Assembly: GCA_965261595.1 (NCBI GenBank)
Contig: CBDHDG010000006.1
Span: 544,001 to 608,000, forward strand
Direction: 5' to 3'
Length of the DNA stretch: 64,000 nt
Source of the DNA: a bacterium
Lineage (GTDB): Bacteria > UBA8248 > JACPRG01 > G963555815
Below, one piece after another: positions 44,025-49,498 of this stretch (positions are counted from its first letter, which is position 1; each line of letters opens with the position of its first letter). A program made the position numbers and the translations under genes. Below the pieces are notes generated by a model. It worked only from the letters and a program-made list of their open reading frames with translations, was not told the origin of the DNA and searched no databases.

Positions 44025-44843
44025 TTATCCTTTCAATCCCCACATGTGGTCCAGCGGGCCGTGGCCGGCGCCGATGTCCCCGGGCGCGCTTCGGATGGCC
44101 TCGGTGATGAAGCCTTTGGCCTCCCCGACGGCCTCTTCCAGCGCCCGGCCCTTGGCCAGGTGGGCCGTGATGGCGGCCGAGAGCGTGCAGCCCGTCCCGT
44201 GCGTGTTCTTCGAGTCGATCCGCTCGGCGCGGAACATCCGGAAATCGGTCCCGTCGTAGAAGAGATCGACGGCCTCGCCCTCCAGGTGGCCGCCTTTCAC
44301 CAGGACGGTCCGGGGGCCCAGGGCCAGCATCCGTTCGGCGGCCTCCCGCATCTCCTCCAGGCTGCCGACGGGGATCCCCGCGAGAACCTCCGCCTCGCCG
44401 AGGTTCGGCGTGATGATCTCCGCCAGGGGCAGGATGTGTCGGATCAGAGATTCCCGGGCCCCCCGCGCCAAGAGGCGGTCCCCCGATTTGGCGACCATGA
44501 CCGGGTCCACGACCAGGGGACGAACGTCGTACTCCTTCACCTTGGCGGCGACGATCTCGATCAGCTCCGCGTCGGCCAGCATGCCCGTCTTGGCCGCCCC
44601 GATGCGGATGTCCGAACAGACGGAATCAAGCTGTTGGGCGACGAATTCGGACGGGAGAGCGTGGACCGCCTGGACGCCCACGGTGTTCTGGGCGGTCAGG
44701 GCCGTCAGGATGGATGCGCCGTAGACGCCCAAGACCGTGAAGGTCTTGAGGTCGGCCTGGATCCCGGCGCCCCCGCCCGAATCCGAGCCGGCGATGGTCA
44801 ACGCGGTGGGTCGTGCGGGCATGCGGGCCTTTCCTTCAGCCAT
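44025..44843 (-). CDS. thiD: Hydroxymethylpyrimidine/phosphomethylpyrimidine kinase
   Basis: [49 protein letters not shown]. Confidence 0.96.
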
Positions 44844-45025
44844 CCGGCGAGAGCGGGCGGACGCTTCCGCGCCCCGACTGATCTCGAAATCAGAGAGAGC
44901 GGAAAATCCATGTCCTACTCTACACGATTCTGAAGCGATGACGCTTTGAGTGCGGGAGGGGAGGGGGAGGGACCCGCTCTCTGAAAATCGGGGGACGCGG
45001 CGGGATTCGGCGCCGCGAGAATCGG

Positions 45026-45053
45026 TTGATTCCTTGGCCCAATGGGCTAAAAT
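45026..45053 (+). promoter_or_regulatory. Putative sigma70 promoter for the ThrC-like/Ubl cluster
   Basis: TTGATT-N16-TAAAAT. Confidence 0.45.
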
Positions 45054-45157
45054 AAACGGACCGAAACCGAATGGGACCCGCGGCCCGATAGAGGTGGCCG
45101 ACGGAGGCGGGAGCGGCGCCGGCGCGCGGCCCTCGCCGGAGAGGAGCTTGAGAGCGG

Positions 45158-46399
45158 GTGGGATACGTCCTCGGATTGAGATGCAAGGAGTGCGGGAAGG
45201 AATATCCCAAGGAGCCGAGCCACGTCTGTGACTATTGCTTCGGGCCGCTCGAGATCGTTTACGACTACGACGCCATCGGCCGGGTGATCTCCCGCGAGTC
45301 GATCCAGGCGGGGCCGCACAGCATCTGGCGGTACAAGGACCTGCTACCCATCGACGGCGAGCCGTCGGTGGGTCTCAACGTCGGGATGACCCCGCTGGTG
45401 AAGGCCGACCGGCTGGGGGCCGCGCTGGGGCTCCGCAACCTCTACGTGAAGAACGACAGCGTCTGCTGTCCCACCTTGTCGTTCAAGGACCGGGTCGTGG
45501 CGGTGGCCGCCACCAAGGCCCAGGAATTCGGATTCGACACCCTGTCGTGCGCCTCGACGGGGAACCTCGCCAATTCCGTGGCGGCGCACGCGGCGGAGGC
45601 GGGCCTGAAAAGCGTCATCTTCATCCCGGCCGACCTCGAGACGGGAAAGGTCCTCGGGACCCTCATCTACAACCCGACGCTCGTGGGAGTGGACGGGGTG
45701 TATGACGACGTCAACCGGCTCTGCGCGGAAATCGCCAGCAACTACCCGTGGGCCTTCGTGAACATCAACATCCGGCCCTTCTACGGAGACGGCTCGAAGA
45801 CCTTCGGCTACGAGGTCATGGAGCAGCTCGGCTGGCGGACGCCCGAGCACATCATCGTCCCGGTGGCCGGCAGCTCGCTGATCACGAAGATCTGGAAATC
45901 GTTCCACGAGTTCAGGGACCTCGGTCTGATCGACGAGGTCACCGCCCGGGTGTACGCCGCCCAGGCCGAGGGCTGCTCGCCCGTCACAACGGCCATCAAG
46001 AACGGGTGGGACCACTTCAAGCCGCAGCGGCCCAACACGATCGCCAAGTCCATCGCCATCGGCAATCCGGCCGACGGATACTACGGCATCCAGGTCTGCC
46101 GCAACAGCGAGGGGGGCGGCGATGACGTGACCGACGAGGAGCTCGTCGCGGCCATGCGCCTTCTGGCCGAAACGGAAGGGATCTTTACCGAAACCGCCGG
46201 CGGGGTGACGGTCGGCGTAACGAAGAAACTGGTCGAGCAGGGACGCATCGCCCCGGACGACTTGACCGTCATCTGCATCACCGGCAACGGTCTCAAAACC
46301 CAGGAGGCCATCCAGGACAGCGTCAACGCCCCGCTTCGCATCGACTCCAAGTTCAGCTCATTCCAGGAAGTGTTCGCAGAACAAATGAAGGAGGCATAA
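45158..46399 (+). CDS. Threonine-synthase-like PLP enzyme; possible sulfur-carrier-dependent homocysteine synthase
   Basis: N-terminal CxxC..CxxC, PTLSFKDR (PLP Lys), CASTGNLANS, ETAGG, ITGNGLKT; followed 5 nt later by a MoaD-like gene. Confidence 0.9.
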   Translation: MGYVLGLRCKECGKEYPKEPSHVCDYCFGPLEIVYDYDAIGRVISRESIQAGPHSIWRYKDLLPIDGEPSVGLNVGMTPLVKADRLGAALGLRNLYVKNDSVCCPTLSFKDRVVAVAATKAQEFGFDTLSCASTGNLANSVAAHAAEAGLKSVIFIPADLETGKVLGTLIYNPTLVGVDGVYDDVNRLCAEIASNYPWAFVNINIRPFYGDGSKTFGYEVMEQLGWRTPEHIIVPVAGSSLITKIWKSFHEFRDLGLIDEVTARVYAAQAEGCSPVTTAIKNGWDHFKPQRPNTIAKSIAIGNPADGYYGIQVCRNSEGGGDDVTDEELVAAMRLLAETEGIFTETAGGVTVGVTKKLVEQGRIAPDDLTVICITGNGLKTQEAIQDSVNAPLRIDSKFSSFQEVFAEQMKEA

Positions 46400-46404
46400 C
46401 CACA

Positions 46405-46692
46405 ATGCCCGTGAAAATCCGCATCCCCACGGCCCTGCAAAAGCTCACCCAAAACGAGGGCGAGGTGGAAGTGCAGGGCGGCGACGTCAACGAGATCATC
46501 GACGGCATGGATCAACGATTCCCCGGCTTCAAGGAGCGCATGTACGACGAGTCGGGCGAGATCCGCCGGTTCATCAACATCTACGTCAACGACGAGGACA
46601 TCCGATTTCTGGGCGGGTCGAAAACGGCCCTGAAGGACGGAGACGAGGTGTCCATCATCCCCGCGATCGCGGGCGGTCTCGAGGTGGAGTGA
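46405..46692 (+). CDS. MoaD/ThiS/CysO-like ubiquitin-like sulfur carrier with C-terminal extension (AGG-LEVE)
   Basis: VKIRIPTAL...RRFINIYVNDEDIRFL...LKDGDEVSIIPAIAGG beta-grasp signature. Confidence 0.93.
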   Translation: MPVKIRIPTALQKLTQNEGEVEVQGGDVNEIIDGMDQRFPGFKERMYDESGEIRRFINIYVNDEDIRFLGGSKTALKDGDEVSIIPAIAGGLEVE

Positions 46693-46747
46693 CACACCGC
46701 GCCCCCCGTCCGCCGGCGCGATCCTCCGGCCCGGACGGACCCGCGTC

Positions 46748-47173
46748 ATGAAGATCGACATCTCGACCCGCTCGCTTCGGGCCATGAAGCGTCACGCCGG
46801 CCGGGACTATCCGCATGAGTGCTGCGGGTTCCTGGTGGGCCGCAAGGCTCGGGGGGGCCGGCGGATCGCCGTCGAGGAGGCCCTGCCCGCGGAGAACCTG
46901 AACCGCGAGCGGGCGCATGACCGCTACGAAATCAGTCCCCTGGCGTACCTGAGGCTGGAGGAGTCTCTCCAAGGGACCGGGCGCGGGATCCTGGGCTACT
47001 ACCACTCCCATCCGGATCACCCGTCCCGGCCCTCGGAGACGGACCTGACGATGTTCGGCGGCTGGCCGGGCTACATTTATGTGATCGTGGGCGTTGACGG
47101 CAAGACTGCCAAATCCAAGAGGTACGCAGTGACCGCGTGGTCGCTGGAAGAGCACGAGCTCGTGTCTGTGTAA
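46748..47173 (+). CDS. JAB/JAMM (M67, Mec+-like) metallopeptidase
   Basis: YPHECCG (catalytic E), YHSHPDHPSRPSETD (HxHx7Sx2D JAMM motif). Confidence 0.93.
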   Translation: MKIDISTRSLRAMKRHAGRDYPHECCGFLVGRKARGGRRIAVEEALPAENLNRERAHDRYEISPLAYLRLEESLQGTGRGILGYYHSHPDHPSRPSETDLTMFGGWPGYIYVIVGVDGKTAKSKRYAVTAWSLEEHELVSV

Positions 47174-47205
47174 CGGGGTGAACTTTCTCGGGGGCTTTTC
47201 GGAGC

Positions 47206-47448
47206 ATGGCTAGGCAATTCGTCACCGCGTATTTTGAAGGGGAGCTCGTCAAAGAGCCGATCATCTGCGAGCTGGGACGGGAATGCGACGTGATCCCCAA
47301 CATCTTCCGCGCGGACGTTCAGGCCGAGGAGGGGTGGATCGTCCTGGAGCTCGAAGGGTCAGAGATCGCCCTTCAGGAAGCCATGGAGTACCTGAGGGTC
47401 CGGGGCGTCCGCCCGGAGCCGGCGAAGGAAGAGGACCTGCCCGCCTGA
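47206..47448 (+). CDS. Stand-alone NIL-domain protein 1
   Basis: LVKEPIICEL..DVIPNIFRADV..GWIVLELEG...A.EYL...GV pattern. Confidence 0.8.
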   Translation: MARQFVTAYFEGELVKEPIICELGRECDVIPNIFRADVQAEEGWIVLELEGSEIALQEAMEYLRVRGVRPEPAKEEDLPA

Positions 47449-47538
47449 TGGCGGCATGGGCGAAGAGCAGGCCGAGCATTTGCGTCGGGTGACCCGGCGT
47501 CCCGCCCGCCCGGCGCCTCCTTACTTGAGGAATGAAAG

Positions 47539-47781
47539 ATGGCCACCCTCCGTGCCCGGCTGACCTTTCCTGAAAACACCGTCAAGCGTCCCCACATCTA
47601 TGAGGTCGGCCAGGCGTACGACATCGTCTGGAGTGTCCGGACGGCCAACGTCACGGCGGATTTCGGCTGGGTCCACCTCGAGATGACCGGCGAGGAGGAA
47701 AACCTCCAAAAGGCCGTCGAGGCCTTCGAGTCCCGCGGCATCACGGTCGCGCCGATCGAGGGGGACGTCGTCGCGAATTAA
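47539..47781 (+). CDS. Stand-alone NIL-domain protein 2
   Basis: LTFP...VKRPHIYEV...DIVWSVRTANV..GWVHLEMTG...GITV.PIEGDVV pattern. Confidence 0.8.
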   Translation: MATLRARLTFPENTVKRPHIYEVGQAYDIVWSVRTANVTADFGWVHLEMTGEEENLQKAVEAFESRGITVAPIEGDVVAN

Positions 47782-47989
47782 AATCCGATCCGTTTTTTGA
47801 GCCCGTCCATTTTGTCCCCTGAATTTTTCCAGCCCCATTCATCGAATCGCTGTTCGTTTCCTTTCGGACGCTTCTATGAGGGTTTGCATCGGCCCCTACA
47901 TCGAAGAAACCCGGCGTGCCGGCCCTTCACCAACCGAACCCATCCGCAGACCGAATGTCTCCCGCTGGATTTGAAACCCCTCCGGAAAA

Positions 47990-48008
47990 GTTATACACAT
48001 GTCATAAC
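47990..48008. promoter_or_regulatory. Palindromic operator upstream of the antitoxin
   Basis: GTTATACACATGTCATAAC is a near-perfect inverted repeat about 20 bp upstream of the antitoxin start. Confidence 0.55.
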
Positions 48009-48029
48009 GCTCGGCAGAAGGGTTCCGCT

Positions 48030-48266
48030 GTGAAGATCTCGAAAACCAAGACAAAGGTCCGGAAGATCGGAAATTCCCTGGGGATTGTGCTTTCGAAGGA
48101 TCTGCTCGACAGGCTCAATGTCCGGGAAGGGGATGACCTCTTCTGGGTTGTCACGCCCGACGGGGCGCGCCTGACGCCGGATGACCCGGACTTCGAGGCG
48201 GTGGCGCGCTCCAACCGGAATACCATGGACCGCCACAGGAACGCCCTCGAAGATCTGGCCGAGTGA
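48030..48266 (+). CDS. AbrB/MazE/SpoVT-fold antitoxin of the type usually paired with Doc
   Basis: KVRKIGNSLGIVL.K..L..LNVREGD.L...TPDG..LTP.DPDFE...M.RHRNAL..LA. Confidence 0.85.
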   Translation: MKISKTKTKVRKIGNSLGIVLSKDLLDRLNVREGDDLFWVVTPDGARLTPDDPDFEAVARSNRNTMDRHRNALEDLAE

Positions 48267-48379
48267 GGGACCCACCCAGTGAAACGGACGAAGTGAACAT
48301 CATCCGGGGCGATGTCTCAGTCCCAACAACGGGCGGCGAGGATATCCCGCACCCGCCGCCGTCCTTGTCCATGACATAA
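48263..48379 (+). pseudogene. Probable remnant of a Doc/Fic toxin (38 codons)
   Basis: GTGA-coupled to the antitoxin; MRDP start and SETDEVNIIRG resemble Doc N- and C-terminal segments; no Fic motif. Confidence 0.35.
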
Positions 48380-48388
48380 TCAATCACC

Positions 48389-49498
48389 ATGCGCATCTCG
48401 TATCTGAAGCATCTGTCCTGCCCCGCCTCCCGGCCCAAGCGAATGGGGCGGTGCGGGGGAAAGCTGGCCGTCCTGCCGGGGGAGATCCCCTCCCGGCTGG
48501 CGGATGACGACGATGAGCTCCTGGAAGGCAACGTCGTCTGCGAGGACTGCGGGGCGTGGGTCCCCGTCCTGGGCGGGGTGCTCGTCCTCGTTCCCAAGCC
48601 CCGGCTTTATCTGGGCGGCCGGTTCGCCTCCATCATGGCGTTCGCGGGCGTGCACGCCGATCTCTCCAAAGACGCCCGCCAGTGGCTGGCCGGCCAGCAC
48701 TTCGACCTCTACGAAGTCCCCAAAAAACAGGACACTGTCGATTCCAACGCGGTCCTCCACTTCGAGCGCGTCGCCGACCTGATGGCCGAGCTCCCCCTGC
48801 CCGAGAGCTTTCGCGCCTTCCTGGAGGAATGGGACGGGAAGACGCCCTTCGACCTGTTGGCGGAGATGGGCCGGGCGCACCGGGCCGCGCCGGAAAGCAG
48901 CGTCCACCGGGAGAACAACCGGCTGGCCGTGGACGCCGGGTGCGGCGCGGGGGGGCTCGTGCACCGGCTGGCCCCCCACTACGAGACGGTGTTCGGCGTG
49001 GACCTGTCGTTCAGCTCCGTCCTGCTGGCCCGCTCGATCCTGCTCCACCAACCGCGGAAATTCGGCCGGCATTACGTCCGCACGGAGCGGGACGCCTTCA
49101 CCCCGCGTGAGCTGGATCACGCGCCCCATCCGAACGTCGAGGTGATCGTGGCCGACTGCACGAACCTGCCCTTCGGCGATGCGTCGGCCGACGCGGTGGC
49201 GAGCGCGAACATCGTGGATATCGTTCACCCGCACACGCCCCTGCGCGAGGCGGCGCGGGTCATCCGGACGGGCGGACACCTGCTCTTCACCGACCCGTTC
49301 AAGATCGCCGCGGGGATGTTCTCGACAACCTCGCGCGGCCCCCTCGAAGACGCGAAACGCTACCTGGCCTCGATGGACCTGCACCCGGTCGAGGAACACG
49401 ATTTTGTCCCGTGGATCTGGCACCGCTTCAAGCGGCAGGTGCAGATCTATTTCAATTACTGCGGGGCATTCCGGAAGGAACACAAGAAAGAAGAATAA
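48389..49498 (+). CDS. Class I SAM-dependent methyltransferase with N-terminal Trm112-like Zn domain
   Basis: LSCP...C...EG.VVCEDCG...PVLGGV; VDAGCGAGG, GVDLS, ADCTNLPF, R.IRTGG.L. Confidence 0.8.
   Translation: MRISYLKHLSCPASRPKRMGRCGGKLAVLPGEIPSRLADDDDELLEGNVVCEDCGAWVPVLGGVLVLVPKPRLYLGGRFASIMAFAGVHADLSKDARQWLAGQHFDLYEVPKKQDTVDSNAVLHFERVADLMAELPLPESFRAFLEEWDGKTPFDLLAEMGRAHRAAPESSVHRENNRLAVDAGCGAGGLVHRLAPHYETVFGVDLSFSSVLLARSILLHQPRKFGRHYVRTERDAFTPRELDHAPHPNVEVIVADCTNLPFGDASADAVASANIVDIVHPHTPLREAARVIRTGGHLLFTDPFKIAAGMFSTTSRGPLEDAKRYLASMDLHPVEEHDFVPWIWHRFKRQVQIYFNYCGAFRKEHKKEE

Follow-up and report, generated by a model that had tools for sequence, protein, structure and literature searches.

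In the CysM/CysO/Mec+ system of Mycobacterium tuberculosis and the HcyS/HcyD/HcyF/MetY system of Wolinella succinogenes, a protein thiocarboxylate supplies the sulfur for a pyridoxal phosphate (PLP) enzyme, and the carrier is acted on by a JAMM protease. Here we examined a five-gene cluster encoding an enzyme of the threonine synthase (ThrC) family, a ubiquitin-like (Ubl) sulfur carrier, a predicted JAMM/JAB protease and two NIL-domain proteins, found at positions 45158-47781 of a 64,000-nucleotide (nt) stretch of bacterial DNA, which is referred to as the window (GenBank assembly GCA_965261595.1, contig CBDHDG010000006.1, positions 544,001 to 608,000 of the forward strand). A thiocarboxylate route from O-phosphohomoserine to homocysteine has been described in Streptomyces albulus by Hasebe et al. 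2024 (Appl Environ Microbiol 90:e0124724), which is known to us as cited in PMC13759103 (GapMind 2026) and through PMC12172450. The steps given in PMC13759103 are the carrier MetO, the [MetO]-L-cysteine hydrolase Mec, the sulfur ligase MoeZ and the thiocarboxylate-dependent homocysteine synthase MetM, the latter being often misannotated as threonine synthase, and PMC12172450 reports that S. albulus metM has an upstream S-adenosylmethionine (SAM) riboswitch. A preliminary description of the window had mentioned such a MetM/MetO system in Streptomyces; the system indeed exists and is published (Hasebe 2024, via PMC13759103), and the novelty of the core had been overrated in that description, MetM, MetO, Mec and MoeZ being already in the literature.

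We conclude that the cluster is very probably a MetM/MetO/Mec thiocarboxylate operon that would convert O-phosphohomoserine to homocysteine. This reading follows from the orthologue-level kinship of its enzyme, carrier and protease to those of Streptomyces taken together with the lack of any other homocysteine route recognised in the genome. The five genes are co-directional, on the forward strand, and the open reading frame (ORF) list gives intergenic gaps of 5, 55, 32 and 90 nt. The metM-like gene (45158-46399) encodes a ThrC-family PLP enzyme of 413 amino acids (aa) with an N-terminal four-cysteine zinc ribbon, the metO-like gene (46405-46692) a ThiS/MoaD-fold sulfur carrier of 95 aa in a pro-form where GG is followed by LEVE, and the mec-like gene (46748-47173) a predicted JAMM/JAB metalloprotease of 141 aa. 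They are followed by NIL1 (47206-47448), a divergent NIL-domain paralogue, and NIL2 (47539-47781), an orthodox NIL-domain protein, both of 80 aa. Domains of the window proteins were assigned by Pfam and NCBIfam scans, and the ORFs together with both scans bear out the five closely spaced co-directional genes that had been seen in the preliminary description, namely a ThrC-fold PLP enzyme, a carrier, a JAMM peptidase and two NIL proteins.

The product of 45158-46399 matches PALP and the thrC model TIGR00260, the latter at 282 bits for a cut-off of 167. Streptomyces metM lies above the same cut-off with 269 bits; hence TIGR00260 is unable to separate MetM from ThrC, which accounts for the usual misnaming. 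The models for cysteine synthases match the window enzyme weakly, with the best NCBIfam match at 28 bits. Five Streptomyces/Kitasatospora genomes were searched with the window enzyme, their genus-level orthologues standing in for S. albulus MetM, and each of them contains one full-length match with 52-55% identity besides a further, ThrC-like one with 37-39%. In all five genomes a SAM riboswitch (RF00162) precedes the 52-55% match and a carrier gene ending in AGG-C follows this riboswitch-linked gene; the combination of SAM riboswitch, ThrC-like gene and carrier is the described metM-metO arrangement. In the opposite direction, Streptomyces MetM finds the window enzyme as its best match in the genome, at 389 bits versus 222 for the next one, making the two reciprocal best hits.

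The 57 rows of a quick IQ-TREE phylogeny comprised the window enzyme together with the three further paralogues in its genome, 15 related loci, 14 paralogues from Streptomyces/Kitasatospora and relatives' genes of the ThrC family, leaving out 15 near-duplicate ThrC rows from the sister family (L243, L244, L247, L248, L250-L255, L257, L259, L260, L262 and L263) and two duplicate loci (L268 and L269). All 24 Ubl-adjacent enzymes, including the one in the window and the five from Streptomyces/Kitasatospora, fall into one clade with a value of 100 in the Shimodaira-Hasegawa-like approximate likelihood ratio test (SH-aLRT), a grouping that is not independent of selection since most of these rows were picked as best matches of the query. 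The thrC genes from these same genomes group in a clade of their own (SH-aLRT 97-99), and it is this separation that is the informative part of the tree. Furthermore, the alignment displays changes specific to the Ubl-linked clade, with SFKDRVV beside the PLP lysine versus SFKDRGM in ThrC and STGNLA in the substrate loop versus STGNTS in ThrC. The window enzyme thus has neither the clade, nor the hom/thrB context, nor the substrate-loop motifs of a threonine synthase. Two further zinc-ribbon ThrC paralogues are encoded outside the window. One of them (C6:1385833-1387140, equivalent to L003:1252-2559) reads SLKDR instead of SFKDR at the PLP lysine and forms a long branch that is the sister of the MetM clade (SH-aLRT 92). 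Its immediate downstream neighbour is a CysK/CysM-like gene, and no carrier gene was seen beside it. The other (C4:324801-326069, L004) groups with Streptomyces paralogues and adjoins a creatinase/prolidase-like gene, as judged by eye.

The carrier belongs to the ThiS/MoaD_arch type (PF02597) in the Pfam and NCBIfam scans and ends in AIAGG-LEVE, and because it is a pro-form of this kind a trimming step would be needed before activation of the GG end. It is 43-48% identical to Streptomyces MetO, of which it is the only match in the genome and the reciprocal best hit. The tails that follow GG differ among relatives (LEVE, F, NDG, LGVL and RPHVQRAS), and Streptomyces has a single C. The protease matches Prok-JAB at 2e-22 with its motif HSHPDHPSRPSETD intact (E..HSHx7SxxD); no other gene of the genome gives a strong Prok-JAB match, and the protein is 33% identical to the JAB of a cluster found at another locus, L012, whose gene order is given below. 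JAB is predicted to trim pro-MetO to its GG end, and it possibly also releases homocysteine from a MetO-homocysteine adduct.

The preliminary description had remarked that the window holds no activating enzyme (E1), and this stands, the two ThiF-family genes of the genome being located on contig C7 and at C6:1767210. A rhodanese-bearing E1 of the MoeB/MoeZ kind is indeed encoded on contig C7, unlinked to the cluster; this protein, which has 406 aa and combines rhodanese and ThiF domains, scores 583 bits with the MoeB model NF006444, above the cut-off, and is 58% identical to the E1 encoded within the L012 cluster. The second ThiF-family gene (C6:1766799-1768645, 490 aa) adjoins a gene of 125 aa and a transposase-like ORF and may be part of a defence or mobile module of the ubiquitin-like kind instead of a sulfur-transfer E1. 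As a separate observation, the cluster-encoded rhodanese-E1 genes of all four Thermodesulfobacteriota/Syntrophaceae clusters examined carry an in-frame TGA (L012:3096-3098, L281:3337-3339, L282:7495-7497 and L283:7971-7973), after which the frame continues (PS*[N/D]EAGVLGV). The TGA aligns exactly with the Cys of PSCAEAGVLGV in the E1 of the window's genome, which makes it a candidate selenocysteine codon at the position of the active-site cysteine of E1.

The genome has a completeness rating of 96.7% and a contamination rating of 5.6%. The preliminary description had looked to a second thrC, and to the genes metA, metX, metB and metY, to tell its reading from a plain threonine synthase. A better-scoring thrC (330 bits) is found between hom and an apgM-like gene, adjoining a likely aspartate kinase judged by eye, and both thrB (255 bits) and metH (1252 bits) are present. 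Profile searches of the genome detected no MetA, no MetX beyond fragments of 27 bits, no enzyme of the MetB/MetY family, for which the best PF01053 (Cys_Met_Meta_PP) match is partial and reaches 27 bits, and no match to HcyBio/DUF39 (PF01837), and control genomes gave matches in each of these searches. Since none of the four was found, no source of homocysteine other than the cluster can be recognised in this genome, where O-phosphohomoserine would be common to ThrC and MetM. Hence the earlier proposal of a carrier-dependent homocysteine synthase system instead of a plain thrC is supported by the clade of the enzyme, by the separate thrC and by the lack of another homocysteine route.

Conservation of the gene order was examined in the family and in two sets of loci. 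In the organism's family the order metM-metO-JAB-NIL1-NIL2 is kept in 6 of the 7 genomes, and in the seventh the contig ends after metO; no carrier gene was found beside the ThrC paralogues examined from the sister family. The 80 best loci retrieved with the enzyme (4 from close relatives, 1 from Thermodesulfobacteriota, 1 from Bacillota and 74 from Chloroflexota) all contain a carrier gene, and 76 of them contain NIL; of the other four, L010 is truncated where its contig ends, while L028, L077 and L086 have no NIL. JAB was present in the fetched flanks of only 4 of these 80 loci. A second set of 80 loci was obtained by a genome scan with an alignment of carrier-NIL fusions, its labels including Thermodesulfobacteriota, Nitrospirota, Verrucomicrobiota, Planctomycetia, Methylomirabilota, Omnitrophota, Acidobacteriota-like and others. 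There the carrier is found in 80/80 loci, a ThrC-like gene in 72/80, NIL directly after the carrier in 78/80, JAB in 27/80, E1 in 26/80 and a CysM-like gene in 25/80, and in 16/80 loci carrier and NIL share one stop-to-stop frame. Such is the case of L012, where both form a single ORF (AIAGG-SSKKRR-NIL), with the genes for a rhodanese-E1, a rhodanese protein, JAB and a CysM-like protein behind it. A protein search with this fusion returned 2232 relatives, the best 120 of which all contain both Pfam domains. The linkage of the five genes is far beyond chance, and the dependence of the preliminary description on a linkage conserved in relatives is answered by the 6/7 family genomes and by a carrier linkage that extends over many phyla. 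In two Verrucomicrobiota loci of the second set, the stretch from the ThrC-like gene to NIL holds two carrier genes in tandem (L290:4440-5041 and L301:5684-6273).

Upstream of the cluster, a sigma-70-like promoter (TTGATT-16-TAAAAT, forward strand, 45026-45053), about 105 nt ahead of metM, is the only promoter-like site found within 44700-48300. Both hexamer regions are kept in 7/7 aligned upstream regions of family relatives, and the leader of about 100 nt between the promoter and the metM start is not conserved among these 7 relatives. The sole small ORF in the leader has six codons and is not Met-rich, and an Rfam search at E<=1 over 44500-48400 gave nothing except a chance microRNA match. 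Contigs from RNA libraries cover parts of the cluster, a type of evidence that proves neither transcription nor a single transcript. Two of them, which come from two runs of one study (metatranscriptome libraries), bridge the metM/metO/JAB junctions with 2 differences each, X15 (901 nt) covering 46304-47204 and X16 (1054 nt) covering 46080-47133. X17 (365 nt, another study, 7 differences) bridges metM/metO, and X19 (299 nt, 13 differences and 6 gaps), which comes from a relative, bridges NIL1/NIL2. The segment 44821-45062 is not spanned by any RNA-library contig, a missing cover that carries no evidential weight.

Riboswitches were also looked for at the other loci by means of a SAM-I core pattern, whose matches in 88 loci were exactly the 7 riboswitches that Rfam had confirmed there. 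In the second set the SAM-I core lies just upstream of the ThrC-like gene in 28/80 loci, and Rfam confirmed 13 of the 13 that were tested among them. Because SAM riboswitches precede it, the module of ThrC-like enzyme, carrier and NIL is tied to methionine metabolism in several phyla. In the first set the riboswitches were mostly at loci devoid of NIL; a substitution of NIL for the SAM riboswitch was nevertheless rejected, given that 27 of the 28 riboswitch-bearing loci of the second set also have NIL.

Both NIL proteins match PF09383 in Pfam (NIL1 at 4e-13 and NIL2 at 2e-11). NIL2 is the counterpart of the single NIL that in other phyla lies after MetO or is fused to it, shares 43% identity with the NIL part of the L012 fusion and keeps the general NIL consensus; the NIL1 paralogue was found only in the organism's family. 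Across 87 aligned sequences the NIL family has ten invariant positions, including P18, I20, G24, A36, G43, L47, E48, G51 and G67. NIL1 keeps the consensus residues N32, R35 and R69 that are lost in NIL2, and itself lacks R5, R34 and the GDV motif at the C-terminus; this complementary residue pattern suggests that the two could form a NIL1/NIL2 heterodimer. The AlphaFold2 (AF2) model of NIL2, with a predicted local distance difference test (pLDDT) value of 88, exhibits a beta-alpha-beta-beta-alpha-beta fold. Compared with the PDB, it gave 11 matches at E<=0.001, all of them C2/NIL domains of MetN, and ACT-type regulatory domains came next. The MetN C2 domain binds methionine and shuts its transporter down. 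In the alignments NIL and MetN share the motif positions N-I, G and E-L-x-G, which we take to have a role in binding. Prediction of a complex of MetM, NIL1 and NIL2 gave a score of 0.53 with NIL2 as partner versus 0.56 with MetM replaced, which favours neither binding nor its absence. A role of NIL as persulfide carrier was rejected, as no cysteine is conserved in the 87 aligned sequences. Of 12 profile matches, the 4 that combine PALP and NIL (P0121, P0122, P0129 and P0131), which come from high-GC metagenome contigs, were not counted as real MetM::NIL fusions. These are most likely frameshifts or read-through products because each is a single-member, single-contig case with an Arg-rich linker before the NIL's own Met. 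A search for longer proteins with NIL2 alone yielded no MetM::NIL fusion.

Based on orthology and on the known chemistry of such systems, we infer a carrier cycle that would proceed as follows. The JAB protease would remove LEVE and expose the GG end of the carrier, which the unlinked rhodanese-E1 of contig C7 would adenylate and convert to the thiocarboxylate. The ThrC-like PLP enzyme would then eliminate phosphate from O-phosphohomoserine, the ThrB product that it would share with the true ThrC, and add the carrier sulfur at the gamma carbon. Homocysteine would be released, possibly after an S-to-N shift and hydrolysis by JAB, and MetH would methylate it to methionine.

Several points weigh against the reading as a MetM/MetO/Mec operon with NIL as a partner. 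The proposed homocysteine-forming system of this organism is read from its genes, and no SAM riboswitch or other methionine-responsive element recognised by Rfam lies upstream of metM in the window. The E1 is encoded apart from the cluster and carries its rhodanese domain at the N-terminus, unlike MoeZ, in which this domain is C-terminal. The contamination rating of the genome is a further point, yet the cluster sits on a contig of 1.8 Mb. As regards NIL, Streptomyces and one Bacillota locus have a MetM/MetO system without it, hence NIL is dispensable for the chemistry, and it is often found alongside the riboswitch, so that it is no simple replacement for the latter.

For the two NIL proteins the explanation that we tentatively place first, at somewhat less than even chances, is that NIL1 and NIL2 are a MetN-C2-like pair that would bind methionine or a relative of it (homocysteine or SAM) and thereby throttle the carrier cycle or MetM at the branch between threonine and methionine. 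It is favoured because the closest solved relatives are regulatory domains, because the Streptomyces chemistry runs without NIL and because the ThrC branch point calls for fast control. Somewhat less likely, though possible, is that NIL is a structural adaptor or chaperone that docks MetO or shields its thiocarboxylate tail and presents it to MetM, E1 or JAB. A parallel would be MoaE, which some bacteria produce as a fusion with MoaD from which a JAMM protease releases it. The MetO::NIL fusions, seen in the 16/80 loci mentioned above and in at least 120 protein clusters, put NIL at the reactive GG end of the carrier, and in other known Ubl fusions the fused partner receives the tail, as in the cleavage of MoaD-MoaE by DRJAMM reported in PMC8832034. 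An adaptor would also be consistent with the position of NIL immediately after the carrier in 78/80 loci and with the loci where NIL and a riboswitch co-occur, at which regulation is already provided. However, the MetM/MetO system of Streptomyces works without NIL and the GapMind account in PMC13759103 lists four steps only, and the closest solved NIL relatives are ligand-binding regulatory domains. Furthermore, there is no packing between the domains in the AF2 model of a natural MetO::NIL fusion, whose predicted template modelling score (pTM) is 0.50 and whose GG linker is disordered, a result that settles the matter neither way.

A broader version of the ligand-sensing proposal, which we regard as doubtful, is that NIL is a conserved third component of MetM/MetO systems that would couple a methionine, homocysteine or SAM signal to the Ubl sulfur carrier, gate the JAMM release in the fusions and act as an asymmetric NIL1/NIL2 heterodimer in this organism. 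If true, it would be a case of post-translational feedback control exerted on a prokaryotic Ubl rather than on the enzyme. An association of NIL with MetM/MetO was not described in the literature searched, whose coverage leaves subscription papers outside, and PMC1779556 (Iyer/Burroughs/Aravind 2006) contains no mention of ThrC, NIL, methionine or homocysteine.

As for the product, it is very improbable that the cluster makes another sulfur compound, such as cysteine in the manner of CysM/CysO, a thio-cofactor or a secondary metabolite. Ubl-thiocarboxylate systems with JAB are reported to serve several products (PMC5925218, on chuangxinmycin, and PMC1779556), the genome has the two further ThrC-like paralogues, and a CysM-like gene occurs in the same cluster in 25/80 loci of other phyla. 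On the other hand, the enzyme falls in the clade of the riboswitch-linked Streptomyces metM, the operon is headed by SAM riboswitches in several phyla, no other homocysteine route was found in the genome although metH is there, and cysteine-synthase models match no better than the 28 bits given above. That the first gene is an ordinary threonine synthase with unrelated neighbours, as its TIGR00260 score taken by itself would indicate, is scarcely credible, since Streptomyces metM passes the same model, a better thrC adjoins hom, the tree separates the two clades, the substrate-loop residues differ throughout the MetM clade and the carrier linkage is conserved across many phyla.

Beyond the cluster, an antitoxin-like gene of the MazE/doc-partner type lies directly 3' of NIL2 (47916-48266; TIGR02609, 54 bits, slightly below the cut-off), followed at 48389-49498 by a gene for a class I methyltransferase with a weak Trm112-like zinc ribbon at its N-terminus.

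Current databases would name the first gene a threonine synthase, and an automated reconstruction would accordingly take the organism for a methionine auxotroph that has one thrC to spare. Recognition of MetM/MetO fills the gap and places O-phosphohomoserine where the threonine and methionine pathways part, as in plants. To our knowledge, the only characterised member of the NIL family senses methionine. Here NIL travels with the carrier, or is fused to it, across Chloroflexota, Thermodesulfobacteriota, Nitrospirota, Verrucomicrobiota, Planctomycetota and others.

When compared with known systems, the core is another case of the MetM/MetO system published in 2024, as cited in PMC13759103. The window and the Streptomyces system have in common a ThrC-like zinc-ribbon enzyme adjoining a GG-tailed ThiS/MoaD carrier, a C-terminal extension of this carrier for removal by a JAMM protease, a rhodanese-containing E1 encoded elsewhere and O-phosphohomoserine as presumed substrate. 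The distinguishing traits of the window are the JAB gene borne within the operon, the tail LEVE in place of a single Cys, the missing SAM riboswitch and above all the duplicated NIL, the five Streptomyces/Kitasatospora loci having none. Unlike in the CysM/CysO and HcyS/MetY systems, the PLP enzyme is of the ThrC type, being neither a CysM, whose models match it weakly, nor an O-acetylhomoserine sulfhydrylase, as no PF01053 enzyme was found in the genome. The C2 (NIL) domain of MetN (PDB 3dhw, 3tui, 3dhx, 2qsw, 2qrr and 3ced) has the same fold as NIL2, with template modelling (TM) scores of 0.75-0.85 and root-mean-square deviations of 1.1-2.5 A, and shares with it the Pfam family PF09383 and the association with methionine metabolism. 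However, this domain is the tail of an ATP-binding cassette (ABC) ATPase, whereas the window NIL is a stand-alone protein of 80 residues with about 20% identity to it, shorter by about four residues in the loop between strands 2 and 3. In the DUF39 (MA1821/MA1822) homocysteine pathway, as described in PMC5764234, a NIL domain has likewise been recruited into a homocysteine-forming system, and insight into the role of NIL here could inform that pathway too. In contrast to the NIL/ferredoxin protein of the DUF39 pathway, the NIL proteins of the window have no ferredoxin domain and are partnered with a ubiquitin-like carrier.

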